A stretch of 38,243 nt of DNA from a virus (Duplodnaviria > Heunggongvirae > Uroviricota > Caudoviricetes). The notes under the pieces are model-generated. The model saw only the letters and a program-made list of their open reading frames with translations, ran no database searches and had not been told where the DNA came from. Below, in pieces: positions 29,748-34,910 of the stretch (position 1 is the first letter of the stretch; each line of letters starts with the position of its first letter). The DNA is taken from the IMG/VR virus record IMGVR_UViG_2721755660_000008, positions 1 to 38,243 of that record. One strand, 5' to 3'. Made by a program: the position numbers and the translations under genes.

Positions 29748-30044
29748 ATGGAATTTCTGATAGTTTTTGTTGTTGTTTTGGTCATCATTCTTTTTGTTTT
29801 GCTAAGCATTAGTAAAAAGCTATCTCAAGTGATTGAACATAGCTCTAATCGCGCAAAAGAAGAAGAGCATCTAATTGATATAAAAGAGATTCTCTCTGAT
29901 ATAAAAATCACATTAGATGAAATAAAATACACAACAGATCTAATTGAACAGTATAAAATACCAACCCCAAACGAGAGAAAAGCAATAGATCAATATCGTA
30001 TTGACTTAGAAATCGACGAAATGCTAAGCAAAAGAAAAGACTAA
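29748..30044 (+). CDS. Small membrane-anchored protein of unknown function, 98 aa, rex position
   Basis: GGAGG RBS 40 nt after cI stop, same strand; N-terminal TM helix FLIVFVVVLVIILFVLLSI then charged helical region; AT-rich codons. Confidence 0.6.
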   Translation: MEFLIVFVVVLVIILFVLLSISKKLSQVIEHSSNRAKEEEHLIDIKEILSDIKITLDEIKYTTDLIEQYKIPTPNERKAIDQYRIDLEIDEMLSKRKD

Positions 30045-30049
30045 AAACA

Positions 30050-30078
30050 CCCGGCCTCAGCGCCGGGTTTTCTTTTCC
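30050..30078 (+). terminator. Intrinsic terminator ending the cI operon (tImm-like)
   Basis: CCCGGC-ctcagc-GCCGGG followed by TTTTCTTTTCC. Confidence 0.6.
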
Positions 30079-30482: not shown

Positions 30483-30791
30483 ATGACGGTAATCGTGTAT
30501 GGGAAATCAACATTCGCAGGAAATGCCAAAACTCGCCGTCATGAGCGGCGCAGAAAGCTGGCTATTGAGCGTGATGCTATCTGTAACATCATTGATTCTA
30601 TCTTCGGCACAGACAGTGAGGAGCCTGTTCAGGAAGCCCCAAGAAAGCGTTTAAGCCTTTCTGAAAAAGCAATATCACTCGGCAACATTCGTAACCAAAA
30701 TACCGACGAATGCAGTGGAAGTATTTGCCTGACAAACGTAGCCATTTACGCGGCAGGCTACCGGAAATCAAAACAACTGACGGCGAGGTAA
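30483..30791 (+). CDS. N-type antitermination protein (P22 gp24-like)
   Basis: ORF 30399..30791 (GTG) trimmed to ATG at 30483 with GAGGAA RBS; Arg-rich motif GNAKTRRHERRRKLAIE; C-terminus LYAAGYRKSKQLTAR. Confidence 0.85.
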   Translation: MTVIVYGKSTFAGNAKTRRHERRRKLAIERDAICNIIDSIFGTDSEEPVQEAPRKRLSLSEKAISLGNIRNQNTDECSGSICLTNVAIYAAGYRKSKQLTAR

Positions 30792-30793
30792 TT

Positions 30794-31246
30794 ATGGATT
30801 TAAATAAATTGGAAGCGTTATTAGAAGCATCAGTAAAAAATTTTATATCAGTAATTGATGAAAAAACTGAAGATATTAAGAAGGCAAATATTATCGAACT
30901 TGTAAAAACAAGAGCCAGTACATTTGAGCACCTTCCTGATGATGTCCGGTCAGCGGCAATTCACGTATATGTAACGGCACTAAGCAATATTGAACCCCCA
31001 ATTGATGAAGAATCAAGAGATATTCAGAGAAAACGGTTTGAGATGTTAGCCAGCAACATTATCGCGGGTTTTACACAGCTCTTAACAAAAGAGCCTGCCA
31101 GTGAAGCTGTTCGCCAGCAGGCTCAGGTAATGATTAATCAGGCAGAAACTATTTCACGTGAGCGAAAAGCATTTGATAAATCGGTTTCTGAACTTCCAAC
31201 ACCTCAACCACAGCCGCTGAACCTTCCTTCTCAACAAACTGAATAA
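30794..31246 (+). CDS. Hypothetical helical protein, first gene after N, 150 aa
   Basis: ORF 30710..31246 trimmed to Met29 (MDLNKLEALLE) 3 nt after N stop with GAGGT RBS; AT-rich 5' half. Confidence 0.55.
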   Translation: MDLNKLEALLEASVKNFISVIDEKTEDIKKANIIELVKTRASTFEHLPDDVRSAAIHVYVTALSNIEPPIDEESRDIQRKRFEMLASNIIAGFTQLLTKEPASEAVRQQAQVMINQAETISRERKAFDKSVSELPTPQPQPLNLPSQQTE

Positions 31247-31403
31247 CTTCATCAAGATGCTTTTTTGCATGTGATGATTGCTCAGGTGGCATAGCAGAAA
31301 CAATCGAAATGATTGCTTGCTGGAGCGCGAGGTTTTCAGTGCTCAGTTTTGAAACTCTGTCGTTTAAATCCTCAATGATTTTAACAAGAGATACATCTGA
31401 CAT
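31149..31403 (-). CDS. Hypothetical protein, 84 aa, oppositely oriented within the PL operon
   Basis: ORF 31149..31445 trimmed to Met15 (MSDVSLVKIIEDL) with AAGGAG RBS 5 nt upstream; 3' end overlaps 3' end of the 150-aa gene by 98 nt. Confidence 0.5.
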   Translation of the reverse strand: MSDVSLVKIIEDLNDRVSKLSTENLALQQAIISIVSAMPPEQSSHAKKHLDEVIQFVEKEGSAAVVEVLEVQKPIYQMLFAHVK

Positions 31404-31415
31404 GTGAACTCCTTC

Positions 31416-31463
31416 TTTTGACTGTGGAAACAACAGTCTACCCATTTCCTTTGACTGTGGAAA
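31416..31463. repeat. Two 14-bp direct repeats TTTGACTGTGGAAA (31417-31430, 31450-31463), 33-bp period, in the divergent intergenic region
   Basis: Exact 14-bp duplication between the 84-aa gene start and the membrane protein gene. Confidence 0.6.
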
Positions 31464-31542
31464 GTGAAGGAACCACCGAGCCTGATGTGGTTAAAAGACA
31501 GGCACAATCTCTACTACCGCAATCCACTATTTAAGGTGATAT

Positions 31543-31992
31543 ATGGAAGAACAAGCAAACAAGATTCTCGTAGAACTACTGCAAAAAGCCAGTAATGGAA
31601 TAGACGCGGCTGTTTCATTTAGCCAAGCACAGATTCCTGATGTTGTTCATCAGTTGCTGCTATGGAATATGGTTGACAGTCTGATTAAAACATTAATTGC
31701 CATTCTAACAATCCCACTGGTTTTCTGGTTTATGAAGAAGCAGTGCCAAAGAGTTGAGACAGGTAAAATCGGTGATGAAGGATATTCATGGGAGAAGGGA
31801 AATCCCAAATACAGGCCGACAATGGTTTGGGATAGCAAAGGTGATATTAATCTTATTATCATGCCATTAGTTGGAGTTTTGGCTCTGTGGGGGATTTTTA
31901 TTATTAGTGCAGTAACCAATATGACATGGTTAAAAATTTTGCTGGCTCCAAAGCTTTACCTTATCGAATATGCAGCATCATTGGTTAAGTAA
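31543..31992 (+). CDS. Two-TM membrane protein of unknown function, 149 aa (candidate exclusion/abortive-infection moron)
   Basis: AAGGTGA RBS; hydrophobic segments LIKTLIAILTIPLVFWFM and INLIIMPLVGVLALWGIFIISAV; AT-rich codons; own terminator downstream. Confidence 0.6.
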   Translation: MEEQANKILVELLQKASNGIDAAVSFSQAQIPDVVHQLLLWNMVDSLIKTLIAILTIPLVFWFMKKQCQRVETGKIGDEGYSWEKGNPKYRPTMVWDSKGDINLIIMPLVGVLALWGIFIISAVTNMTWLKILLAPKLYLIEYAASLVK

Positions 31993-31996
31993 TTTC

Positions 31997-32022
31997 AGGC
32001 CGCATAGTCGGCCTTTATTTTT
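31997..32022 (+). terminator. Intrinsic terminator after membrane protein gene
   Basis: AGGCCG-catagt-CGGCCT followed by TTATTTTTGG. Confidence 0.55.
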
Positions 32023-32141
32023 GGCACTAACAACAGAATAAACACTGCACTGTGTATTCATTCCAACGAGTGAATACACGGAGCAATGTCGCTCGTAACT
32101 AAACAGGAGCCGACTTGTTCTGATTATTGGAAATCTTCTTT

Positions 32142-32167
32142 GCCCTCCAGTGTGAGGGCGTTTTTTT
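32142..32167 (+). terminator. Intrinsic terminator immediately upstream of the 322-aa gene
   Basis: GCCCTC-cagtgt-GAGGGC followed by GTTTTTTT; GGAGG RBS of next gene follows. Confidence 0.6.
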
Positions 32168-32179
32168 GATGGAGGATAT

Positions 32180-33148
32180 ATGAGTGAAGTAACAGATTTA
32201 GTTGTTATTGAAAAAGCAAATGCAATGACTGTATTTCAGTCTGCCGACCAGATTGAAGAAATCCTTCAAAAGGTTGAACGCGAAGTTATGTCCTTTGTGC
32301 CTGATATCACAACGGCAAAGGGCAGAAAGGAGATCGCTTCTCTGGCGTATAAAGTTGCGCAGACGAAAACATATCTCGATGGTCTTGGCAAAGACCTTGT
32401 TGCTGAACTGAAGGAAATTCCAAAGCTAATTGATGCCAACCGCAAGACAGTGCGTGATCGCCTTGATGAGCTGAAAGCCAAGGCACGCCAGCCTCTTACT
32501 GATTATGAGGAAGAACAGGCGCGGATTAAAGCTGAAGAAGAAGCTAAGGCAGCAGCTGAAGCTCTCGCAAAGCAAATTGAGTCTGACCATGAAATAGCGA
32601 TTTTGATGGATCGCGAATTTGACCGCCAAAGAGAAGAGGCAAGACTCAAAGCGGAGCAGGAAAAGCGAGAGCATGAAGAACGCTTAAAAAGAGAAGCTGA
32701 AGAGAAAGCCAGAGCAGAAGCCGAAGCAAAGGCAAAAGCCGAAATTGAAGCAGCAGCAAGGCGAGAAGCAGAAGCTAAGGCCGCAGCGGAACGTGCAGAG
32801 CGTGAACGCATTGAAGCAGAGCAACGAGCACAGCGCGAAGCAAAAGAGGCAGCAGAACGAGCTGAAAGAGAAAAGCAGGCGGCAATTGAAGCAGAACGCC
32901 GAAAAGCACAGGAGGAGGCTGAACGAATCCGGCGCGAGGCTGAAGCAAAAGAGCAAGCCAGAATAGCAGAAGAAAAAAGAATCAAGGAAGAAGAAGAGCG
33001 TAGAGCAAAGGATAAAGCTCACCGGAAAGAAGTAAATAACAAAATACTTGCTGACCTTATCAAGGTTGGTGCATCAGAAGATGTTGCTAAAAATATCATA
33101 ACAGCCATCGTAAAAGGCGAAGTATTCGCAACAAAAATAACCTACTAA
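32180..33148 (+). CDS. Hypothetical protein with ~150-residue E/R/K/A-rich coiled-coil repeat region, 322 aa
   Basis: GGAGG RBS; low-complexity central region (AEAKAKAEIEAAARREAEAKAAAERAERERIEAEQRAQ...). Confidence 0.7.
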   Translation: MSEVTDLVVIEKANAMTVFQSADQIEEILQKVEREVMSFVPDITTAKGRKEIASLAYKVAQTKTYLDGLGKDLVAELKEIPKLIDANRKTVRDRLDELKAKARQPLTDYEEEQARIKAEEEAKAAAEALAKQIESDHEIAILMDREFDRQREEARLKAEQEKREHEERLKREAEEKARAEAEAKAKAEIEAAARREAEAKAAAERAERERIEAEQRAQREAKEAAERAEREKQAAIEAERRKAQEEAERIRREAEAKEQARIAEEKRIKEEEERRAKDKAHRKEVNNKILADLIKVGASEDVAKNIITAIVKGEVFATKITY

Positions 33149-33695: not shown

Positions 33696-34403
33696 ATGGA
33701 TTTGAACAAATTCGATGAGCCATTCAGCCCTGAAGATATCGAATGGCGAATACAGCAAAGCGGTAAAACACGCGATGGCAAGGTGTGGGCTATGGTGCTG
33801 GCTTATGTCACGAACCGGGCAATCATGAAACGCCTGGACGATGTTTGCGGCAAAGCAGGATGGCGCAATGAATACCGCGATATTCCCAACAACGGCGGCG
33901 TTGAATGCGGCATATCAATAAAGATTGATTCCGAATGGGTAACCAAATGGGATGCTGCTGAAAACACGCAGGTAGAAGCCGTCAAAGGTGGTCGTTCCGG
34001 TGCAATGAAGCGCGCTGCCGTTCAGTGGGGAATCGGTCGGTATCTGTATAACCTTGAGGAAGGTTTCGCACAAACATCTCTCGATAAAAAGCAGGGGTGG
34101 CACAGGGCAAAACTGAAGGATGGAACAGGATTTTACTGGCTCCCTCCATCGCTTCCGGGATGGGCAATCCCAGCATCAGATAACAAACCATCACCAGAAA
34201 ATACCAACCAGAAATCTCCATCGGTTGACTGCGAACAAATCCTGAAAGACTTCAGCGATTATGCGTCAACAGAAACTGACAAGAAAAAACTCATCGAGCG
34301 TTATCAGCGTGACTGGCAATTAATGGCTGGCAATGAGGATGCGCAGGCTAAATGCGTTCAGGTAATGAACATCAGAGTTAACGAACTAAAACAGGCGGCA
34401 TAA
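33696..34403 (+). CDS. Rad52-family single-strand annealing protein
   Basis: 235 aa; motifs VLAYVTNRAIMKRLDDVCGKAGW and GAMKRAAVQWGIGRYLYNL resemble the Rad52 N-terminal domain. Confidence 0.7.
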   Translation: MDLNKFDEPFSPEDIEWRIQQSGKTRDGKVWAMVLAYVTNRAIMKRLDDVCGKAGWRNEYRDIPNNGGVECGISIKIDSEWVTKWDAAENTQVEAVKGGRSGAMKRAAVQWGIGRYLYNLEEGFAQTSLDKKQGWHRAKLKDGTGFYWLPPSLPGWAIPASDNKPSPENTNQKSPSVDCEQILKDFSDYASTETDKKKLIERYQRDWQLMAGNEDAQAKCVQVMNIRVNELKQAA

Positions 34404-34910
34404 ATGGCAAGCAGAGGCGTAAATAAGGTGATTATCCTTGGTCGGGTAGGACAAGACCCGGAAGTTCGATACTCACCATCAGGAACAGCGTTCGCTAACC
34501 TGACAATAGCCACGTCAGAACAATGGCGAGATAAAAATACTGGCGAGCAAAAGGAATTGACTGAATGGCATCGTGTTGCTGTATCCGGGAAACTGGCTGA
34601 GGTCGTGGGGCAGTATGTGAAAAAAGGTGATCAGATTTATTTCGAGGGAATGCTGAGAACCAGAAAGTGGAAAGACCAGTCAGGGCAAGACCGTTACACA
34701 ACCGAGGTTCATGTCGGAATTAATGGCGTGATGCAAATGCTTGGCGGAATTGGCGACAGCAAACAACAAGCAGCCAGCAGGCAATCACAGAAGCCACAGC
34801 AGCAATCATCACCAGCACAACACAACGAACCTCCGATGGATTTTGACGACGATATCCCATTTGCACCAGTAACTCTCCCCTTCCCTCGTCACGCTATTCA
34901 CGCAATTTAA
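34404..34910 (+). CDS. ssb: Single-stranded DNA-binding protein SSB, with 15-aa extension after the DDDIPF tip
   Basis: [23 protein letters not shown]...[15 protein letters not shown]...[11 protein letters not shown]-fold; C-terminus ...[26 protein letters not shown]. Confidence 0.9.

Follow-up and report, generated by a model that had tools for sequence, protein, structure and literature searches.

The DNA described here is a stretch of 38,243 nucleotides (nt) from the virus record IMGVR_UViG_2721755660_000008, referred to below as the window. The whole stretch is a lambdoid prophage in which the plus strand is the direction of transcription from the early-left promoter, PL. Downstream of its N-type antiterminator gene two small genes diverge from an intergenic region of 139 bp (31404-31542): a minus-strand gene for a protein of 84 amino acids (aa), read against PL, and a plus-strand gene for a 149-aa protein with two transmembrane (TM) segments (Table 1). 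The interval 30790-32030 is 100% identical to the corresponding locus of Escherichia coli 09-00049 (NZ_CP015228.1). We consider it probable that the region consists of two independent modules in adjacent accessory slots of the lambdoid early-left operon, and that the contents of these slots are exchanged independently. The first slot corresponds to the place of sieB in lambda and P22 and the second to the place of ral.

Independent assortment of the two modules

The two genes assort independently and are not co-inherited. The 149-aa coding sequence is present in 242 of 5426 complete E. coli genomes and the 84-aa gene in 6. Among 128 fetched segments with the repeat type of the window (type B, defined below), a set that includes the window and its identical source locus, both genes occur together only in the window and the source copy, and the 149-aa gene is otherwise adjacent in a single segment (L046), where it lies beside a different cargo gene. 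Homologues of the 84-aa gene face cIII (strain PEC41 and locus L077) or a gene with an Nmad5 domain instead, and the 149-aa gene directly follows N in phage HF4s and stands beside sieB in Salmonella phage Oslo. The initial annotation of the stretch had proposed a divergent regulator-effector cassette with a shared, repeat-containing control region. In such a regulator-effector or antitoxin-toxin pair the 84-aa protein would bind the repeats and control both genes, and this finds some favour in the divergent orientation of the genes on either side of the repeat-bearing region and in the pairing of a small soluble with a small membrane protein, a common layout of toxin-antitoxin and abortive-infection systems. 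The model is nevertheless very improbable, since among the loci examined the genes co-occur only in this prophage, and since the same 60-bp repeat region, 100% identical, precedes unrelated small genes in other E. coli prophages, with ral on the other side. In addition, profile searches found no helix-turn-helix (HTH), ribbon-helix-helix or other DNA-binding domain in the 84-aa protein, the 76 bp upstream of the 149-aa gene are the lambda ral leader, and there were zero PADLOC matches. Neither the cassette nor the shared control region is upheld by these comparisons.

Comparison of its homologues indicates that the 84-aa open reading frame (ORF) is a real gene under purifying selection. The homologues form 12 protein clusters at 75-98% identity, every one exactly 84 aa long, and more distant members of the family reach 22-38% identity. 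The family is tiny: of 1.84 billion representatives searched exhaustively with a profile, 7 clusters, with lengths of 84-87 aa, belong to it. Against divergent copies the ratio of non-synonymous to synonymous change (pN/pS) is 0.19-0.23, with 48 of the 74 differences falling in the third codon position. The ORF overlaps the 3' end of the plus-strand ORF at 30794-31246 by 98 nt, and within this overlap the 84-aa frame is constrained (pN/pS 0.2) whereas the plus frame is not (about 0.9) and is broken by stop codons in relatives. The gene is followed by its own intrinsic terminator, the long stem of which has a predicted folding energy of -24.3 kcal/mol and which lies outside the interval considered by the initial annotation (31149-32030). 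An equivalent hairpin and T run are found 3' of every divergent family member examined, down to 38% identity, and the stems are altered in sequence yet still pair by virtue of compensatory changes. The GC content of the gene is 40.4%, compared with 47.2% for the window.

In the source genome, NZ_CP015228.1, the Prokaryotic Genome Annotation Pipeline (PGAP) annotated only the plus-strand ORF, and the 84-aa gene was missed (1197688-1198058, equivalent to window positions 31100-31470) because of the overlap between the two. The same pipeline calls the gene in strain PEC41 (WP_096952992.1). That the 84-aa ORF is spurious and the plus-strand 150-aa ORF the only true gene, as its sole annotation in the source genome and the 98-nt overlap might suggest, is the least credible of the alternatives that we considered, given the fixed length and wide divergence of the family, the predominance of third-position differences in a frame that is constrained where the opposite one is not, the presence of a dedicated ribosome-binding site (RBS), promoter signature and terminator, and the annotation in PEC41.

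The 84-aa protein has no TM segment (its highest 19-residue hydropathy is 1.0), which points to a soluble product. An AlphaFold2 model is all-helical, with four helices, at low confidence (predicted local distance difference test, pLDDT, 62.7), and the sequence has an N-terminal heptad-like, coiled-coil-like segment and a conserved MPxEQ motif, here MPPEQ. We take it to be a soluble and probably dimeric helical protein. Profile searches, including those of PDB sequences, returned weak and generic coiled-coil matches only, no functional assignment was found in Pfam, PHROG, NCBIfam or PADLOC, and tblastn against 50,697 phage records gave zero matches. From its slot and the type of promoter that precedes it, the protein is most likely a prophage-expressed factor for phage conflict or host modification. 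In one further strain, E. coli Z1323CEC0019 (NZ_CP148401.1, 2475991-2477674), the promoter region and part of the 84-aa gene region match at places some 1.3 kb from each other, an arrangement that suggests an insertion splitting the unit.

The overlapping 150-aa ORF is a mosaic. Residues 1-96 are a separate module by tblastn, also present at loci without the 84-aa gene (L007 and L037), and residues from about 97 to 150 match only where the 84-aa gene is present. This tail reads the terminator and 3' end of the 84-aa gene in antisense, so that the seeming linkage between that gene and the 150-aa ORF is largely artefactual. In every member of the 84-aa family a plus-strand ORF of some kind runs 53-131 nt into the gene before it stops. 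The tail of the 150-aa ORF shows no evidence of selection (pN/pS about 0.9) and is shortened by stops in relatives, and no functional assignment for the 150-aa protein was found in Pfam, PHROG, NCBIfam or PADLOC. Elsewhere the point at which the tail of the 150-aa ORF starts is the beginning of a distinct small ORF, which opens with ATGAAT and has an RBS of its own.

The 149-aa protein matches the PHROG 3054 profile over its full length (E 1.4e-62, residues 1-149, all 137 profile positions) and belongs to a group of 477 protein clusters across Enterobacterales, all of which are named hypothetical. Conservation is highest in residues 1-42 and 127-149, and the hydrophobic segments (about 43-65 and 100-128) vary between relatives. 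The AlphaFold2 model is again of low confidence (pLDDT 63.1), Foldseek against viral structures recovered uncharacterised proteins only, and profile searches of Pfam, NCBIfam, PADLOC and PDB sequences found no functional assignment. The leader that ends in the start codon of the gene is 98.7% identical to lambda 34355-34430 and 93.4% identical to P22, and the first three codons, ATGGAAGAA, are those of lambda orf28. On the other side, a hairpin that resembles the one after lambda ral lies at the junction with lambda-identical sequence, and the trailer holds the lambda hairpin TTGCCCTCCAGTGTGAGGGCGA and then a T run (32141-32160), which we take to be tL1 of the lambda map. With conserved lambda flanks on both sides, the 149-aa gene exactly replaces lambda orf28 and ral. 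A consensus scan found no promoter-like site on the plus strand upstream of the gene, and this, together with the orf28-ral leader and RBS of lambda and P22 and the post-ral hairpin and tL1, makes it most likely that the protein is an N-dependent delayed-early product of PL and not a partner of the 84-aa gene. The trailer also contains an inverted repeat (32042-32089) with arms of 22 nt.

Much of what the initial annotation had said of the gene content is confirmed. The minus-strand 84-aa gene with its AAGGAG RBS is where it was placed, its description as a self-contained moron holds for this gene, with promoter signature, RBS, coding sequence and terminator all present, and the assignment of the locus to the slot of sieB/ral-type functions agrees with the near-identity of the leader to lambda. 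The plus-strand gene is indeed AT-rich (GC 38.7% against 47.2% in the window) and encodes a two-TM protein of 149 aa, and neither protein, as had been stated, is recognisable, profile searches of both having led to no characterised family. The terminator proposed to follow the 149-aa gene needs qualification: the hairpin and T run are there, but they mark the junction with the conserved lambda trailer.

Upstream and downstream of the two modules the gene order is that of a lambdoid early region. The product of the gene after the repressor has one N-terminal hydrophobic segment, and a hairpin 3' of this gene (30049-30068) scores as a terminator on both strands. The region studied is followed by genes for a 322-aa charged protein, cIII, kil and a Rad52-type recombinase. 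The 322-aa protein (32180-33148) is highly charged, rich in Ala, Glu, Lys and Arg, belongs to no Pfam family and has an AT skew of up to 0.78; its homologue in HF4s is annotated as 'similar to phi80 Agt; Gam antitoxin'.

Table 1. Positions of genes and signals in the early-left region of the window
Feature	Position	Strand	Basis or remark
S24/HTH repressor gene	28970-29707		
Gene for 98-aa protein, phrog_18389	29748-30044		rexAB position, after the repressor gene
N-type antiterminator gene	ends 30791		followed by the 150-aa ORF
150-aa N-proximal ORF	30794-31246	+	PGAP annotation, tblastn
Module 1 (complete moron, sieB slot)	about 31084-31469	-	
Intrinsic terminator of the 84-aa gene	31084-31124	-	RNA fold; 15-bp stem 31124-31091, then TTTTGTT
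84-aa protein gene	31149-31403	-	ORF list, homologues, purifying selection
RBS AAGGAG	31409-31414	-	read from sequence; 5 nt before the ATG
Proximal repeat copy	31417-31430	-	TTTCCACAGTCAAA on this strand; predicted transcription start about 31428 and first bases of the 5' untranslated region (UTR)
-10 hexamer TAGACT	31435-31440 (read 31440-31435)	-	aligns with P22 sieB -10 TAAACT
Distal repeat copy	31450-31463	-	first six bases, TTTCCA (31463-31458), form the predicted -35 hexamer
Conserved leader and RBS, through the 149-aa start codon	31470-31545	+	start codon is that of lambda orf28
Two interleaved helices, conserved structured element	31471-31503	unassigned	covariation
149-aa two-TM protein gene, phrog_3054 (module 2, ral slot)	31543-31992	+	
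Terminator-like hairpin and T run	31997-32024	+	hairpin 31997-32014; directly 3' of the 149-aa gene
Trailer nearly identical to lambda 33925-34090	32010-32175	+	between ral and ea10 in lambda

The predicted promoter region of slot 1 and its repeats

The intergenic region contains two exact copies of TTTGACTGTGGAAA, 33 bp apart from start to start, and if one mismatch is allowed the repeat grows to 18 nt. Both the 14-bp repeats and their spacing had been reported in the initial annotation, which put the intergenic region at about 140 bp, and both are confirmed. By our own arithmetic an exact 14-bp direct repeat is expected by chance in 139 random bases with a frequency of about 3e-5, and no further copies above chance level were found in the 38-kb window, even when 3 mismatches were allowed. 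On the minus strand the distal copy supplies a -35 hexamer, which is separated by 17 bp from a -10 hexamer, and the proximal copy would contain the start of transcription, giving a predicted 5' UTR of about 25 nt. In position and layout this arrangement corresponds to the mapped sieB promoter of P22, and slot 1 is likely to be served by a weak sigma-70 promoter that is homologous to it. The same initial annotation had seen in each repeat a TTGACT hexamer resembling a -35 element. As plus-strand -35 elements these can be ruled out, for they have no -10 partner on that strand and the conserved signature reads on the minus strand. Two other candidates were rejected: a second promoter that uses the proximal copy as its -35 region, for which no conserved -10 was found, and a small upstream ORF from the distal copy (a 98-aa extension from an ATG at 31445), which is not conserved.

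The distribution of this region was followed by four scans of viral contigs, which used both copies of TCCACAGTCAA, the conserved hairpin arm only, the proximal copy and RBS only, or the distal copy only, and the figures that follow from them are lower bounds. The scan with the hairpin arm uncovered three types of repeat within one shared architecture. Type A, found in lambda and P22, has two copies of ACCCCTACAG 34 bp apart; type B, that of the window, has two copies of TTCCACAGTCAA(A) 33 bp apart; and type C has two copies of TCCCCAACA, also 33 bp apart. The two copies are rarely parted. In the scan with the proximal copy and RBS, 102 of the 119 matches listed have a distal copy with at most one mismatch 32-34 bp away, and those without one are mostly unrelated sequence as judged by eye. 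Among the matches listed for the distal copy, 145 have a proximal copy with at most one mismatch and 54 do not, and in these 54 the only genuine cassettes that we recognised by eye are two single-copy deletion variants, L289 and L330. In both, one repeat copy is joined directly to the RBS and the 33-bp unit that includes the -10 is gone; they are presumably promoter-dead, and the deletion is of the kind expected from recombination between the copies.

A sigma-70 signature emerges at positions that had not been fixed by the searches. In 83 unique type-B sequences the CTT before the motif is near-invariant, giving the -35 hexamer TTTCCA, the spacer is 17 bp, and the -10 has the form T-A-n-n-n-T with near-invariance at positions 1, 2 and 6. 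From Proteus, Providencia and Photorhabdus to Escherichia an exact pair of 11-mers has been retained amid neighbouring sequence that varies. A survey of species-representative genomes recovered the type-B cassette from at least 16 genera of Enterobacterales: Proteus, Providencia, Photorhabdus, Xenorhabdus, Yersinia, Serratia, Rahnella, Erwinia, Pantoea, Mixta, Izhakiella, Klebsiella, Enterobacter, Leclercia, Pseudescherichia and Trabulsiella, the last of which carries a member of the 84-aa family behind it. The 11-mer TCCACAGTCAA is also found in short tandem arrays in Microcoleus, Calothrix and Moraxella (L368, L376 and L378) that have no cassette context; these cyanobacterial and Moraxella arrays look unrelated to the phage element.

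What follows the cassette is highly variable. Taking the three types together, the ORFs on its 3' side encode at least 132 distinct proteins in at least 18 families, and type B by itself precedes at least 14 unrelated families of small genes across Enterobacterales. The cargo varies with the type of repeat. Type A is mostly found with SieB (at least 77 loci). Among the cargoes of type B are GhoS-like proteins (at least 46 loci), a family of about 60 aa (at least 38), the 84-aa family (17 variants at 25 or more loci) and another family of about 69 aa (at least 25). The commonest of the type-B cargo proteins, a family of 91-100 aa, scores 22.7 bits against the Pfam GhoS model, for which the cut-off is 21; examples of this GhoS-like cargo are loci L015-L133 and genome loci of Proteus, Photorhabdus and Enterobacter (L366, L372 and L415). 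GhoS is an endoribonuclease that acts as a type V antitoxin.

A second conserved feature, formed by two interleaved helices, is found immediately upstream of the distal repeat, where it stands between the sieB-type promoter and the ral leader. In helix B positions 31471-31476 pair with 31487-31492, and in helix A positions 31480-31484 pair with 31499-31503. Over 74 distinct sequences helix A is 99.5% paired, with two pairs changed on both sides (35 cells) such that GCCTG/CAGGC is swapped for GCCGG/CCGGC and GCTGG/CCAGC, and helix B is 86% paired, with compensatory changes at 4 pairs. None of 500 shuffles reached the observed covariation score, and slid controls were 19-44% paired. Lambda (about 34397-34429) and P22 (positions 1502-1534 of locus L013) both have the element, and it accompanies all three types of repeat. 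A search of 31471-31503 with the covariance models of Rfam 15 gave no match, even at E values up to 5. The order of the segments would allow an H-type pseudoknot, and from the lengths of the loops we infer a better fit to the PL-sense strand; the counts of G-U pairs on the two strands, 26 against 10, are dominated by one terminal pair.

A model for the two slots and the role of the repeats

We propose that slot 1 holds a complete transcription unit directed against PL, with a promoter, a short 5' UTR of about 25 nt, an RBS, the 84-aa gene and a terminator. By analogy with P22 sieB, this unit would be transcribed in the lysogen, where PL is repressed. Induction or infection would silence it, as polymerases that start at PL and are modified by N would then run through it head-on and produce antisense RNA. 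The repeats would be intrinsic to this type of promoter, the distal copy forming the -35 region and the proximal copy the start site together with the initial bases of the mRNA. In slot 2 the 149-aa membrane protein would be made from PL as a delayed-early product that depends on N.

Several observations weigh against this model or limit it. The slot-1 promoter matches the consensus weakly, at 4/6 and 4/6, and was missed by a simple promoter scan. We infer its activity at type-B loci, and its timing, from comparison with P22 sieB, and the P22 start site itself is taken from a GenBank annotation. For the 149-aa gene, the search for a promoter of its own was confined to the consensus scan. Confidence in the two structure models is low (pLDDT about 63), no functional homologue of either protein was found in the databases searched, and what we suggest of their functions derives from their positions. 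Finally, the repeats are not fully explained by the model, because a plain promoter does not need its -35 and +1 regions to be identical.

This last point leads to the question of what the repeats might do. It is possible, and we put it forward tentatively, that they are a pair of operators for a host or phage DNA-binding factor, set on the same face of the helix three turns apart, which would repress or gate the slot-1 promoter. An operator pair would be compatible with the model above and would refine it. It would help to account for the identity of the -35 and +1 sequences within each of three diverged types at a constant spacing of 33-34 bp, for the retention of both copies in almost all genuine instances among the matches listed, and for the persistence of the exact 11-mer pair from Proteus, Providencia and Photorhabdus to Escherichia within sequence that otherwise varies. 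On the other hand, no candidate for the factor was found, nor was any further copy of the motif in the 38-kb window, and the product of the downstream gene cannot be the factor. The immunity repressor is also unlikely in this role: the repressors of lambda and P22 recognise different operators, and these two phages share one type of repeat. The repeats are not known to match convincingly the site of any E. coli regulator. Of the sites of DnaA, LexA, CRP, IHF, NarL, IscR, GalR, OmpR and sigma-E, none is known to fit all three types; the type-B copy resembles a DnaA box at 8 of 9 positions, and types A and C do not.

Rather doubtful, though not without merit, is the explanation that the repeats have no regulatory role of their own and represent 1.6 tandem copies of a 33-bp promoter/5' UTR unit, in which each copy is separately useful. 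The copies may then also act as short conserved junctions for the swapping of cargo by recombination. Beyond the core the two units remain similar into an AGGAA, RBS-like stretch. Where loci differ in cargo, their homology stops directly behind the proximal copy and RBS, and the single-unit deletion variants L289 and L330 are what recombination between copies is expected to leave. This explanation is weakened by the three diverged types, within each of which independent constraints on a -35 region and a 5' UTR would not keep the copies identical, and gene conversion would have to act over 10-14 bp, which makes it no obvious mechanism for doing so. A role of the repeats at the level of RNA, in the antisense transcript from PL, was considered as well.

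In a wider sense the sieB-type cassette could be a portable expression platform that marks a hypervariable slot, with the duplicated motif as a regulatory site and the slot as a hotspot of phage conflict in Enterobacterales. We regard this as a tentative proposal that falls short of being probable. If it is true, the platform would consist of the two-helix element and a motif duplicated at -35 and +1, both of which are present in lambda and P22, the motif would be an operator pair or an RNA-level signal, and the 84-aa protein would be one effector among at least 18 cargo families that include SieB and GhoS-like proteins. The sieB type of promoter and moron is already known. What is new is a different, uncharacterised cargo, lying beside an independent replacement of the ral slot, and a literature search found no description of the slot or cassette beyond sieB and sas. 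There are practical consequences also. A real gene under selection is missing from the RefSeq annotation of the source genome, and the succession of structured element, repeat, -10, repeat and RBS offers a sequence handle for finding genes that are probably expressed from prophages. Of the cargo families preceded by the cassette, at least 18 in number, 17 are uncharacterised, and the precedent for the slot is an exclusion gene. Two features of the classic phages also appear to be unexplained, namely the identical -35 and +1 sequences of the sieB promoter in lambda and P22 and the two-helix element (in lambda at about 34397-34429).

Comparison with known systems

The closest precedent for module 1 is the sieB locus of P22 and lambda, which occupies the same place in the PL operon, after N and before ral, and has the same orientation against PL. 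In lambda sieB starts at 34482 and is transcribed against PL, and the conserved segment 34355-34430 lies between this start and orf28/ral; relative to that shared segment the ATG of the 84-aa gene is at the position of the sieB ATG. The curated P22 record BK000583 places the sieB promoter and RNA start in the interval homologous to the repeat region of the window, and the annotated RNA start is the first base of the proximal repeat of P22. The layout of the promoter is also the same, with a repeat over the -35 region, a TAnnnT -10, a second copy at +1 and a short 5' UTR. The sequence of the repeat differs, however, being TTTCCACAGTCAAA at 33 bp in the window and ACCCCTACAG at 34 bp in P22 and lambda, and so does the cargo. 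SieB is a membrane protein of roughly 190 aa, whereas the 84-aa protein is an unrelated, soluble helical protein with no sequence match to it, and searches of Pfam, PHROG, NCBIfam and PADLOC gave no match that would indicate SieB homology. In contrast to the sieB/esc arrangement the 84-aa gene does not have an internal second start of the Esc type, and a simple scan found no sas-like antisense promoter in P22 or in the window.

Module 1 also resembles a moron, a concept which is reportedly due to Juhala, Hendrix and colleagues and which describes a promoter-gene-terminator unit that sits between operon genes and is expressed by the prophage. The likeness lies in its own promoter signature, as recognised by comparison, its own terminator and its lower GC content (40.4% against 47.2%), and in the absence of the insert where the flanking genes abut, as in HF4s, in which N is followed by the 149-aa gene. 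It differs in that the unit is antisense within the operon, with expression in the lysogen suggested by the precedent of P22 sieB, and in that 160 nt of it, covering the terminator and the 3' end of the gene, are read through by the upstream plus-strand ORF.

The counterpart of module 2 is orf28-ral of lambda. The 149-aa gene shares with it a leader of 76 bp, the RBS and, on the far side, a trailer of about 165 bp in which the tL1 hairpin lies; its coding sequence, for a two-TM protein of PHROG family 3054, is unrelated to Ral. With GhoS/GhoT, a type V toxin-antitoxin system, the two genes share a superficial likeness of layout, a small soluble protein next to a small membrane protein, and the same promoter cassette does drive GhoS-like proteins at other loci. 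The likeness goes no further, as the 84-aa protein is not GhoS-like, the 149-aa protein is not GhoT-like and the two genes are not inherited together.

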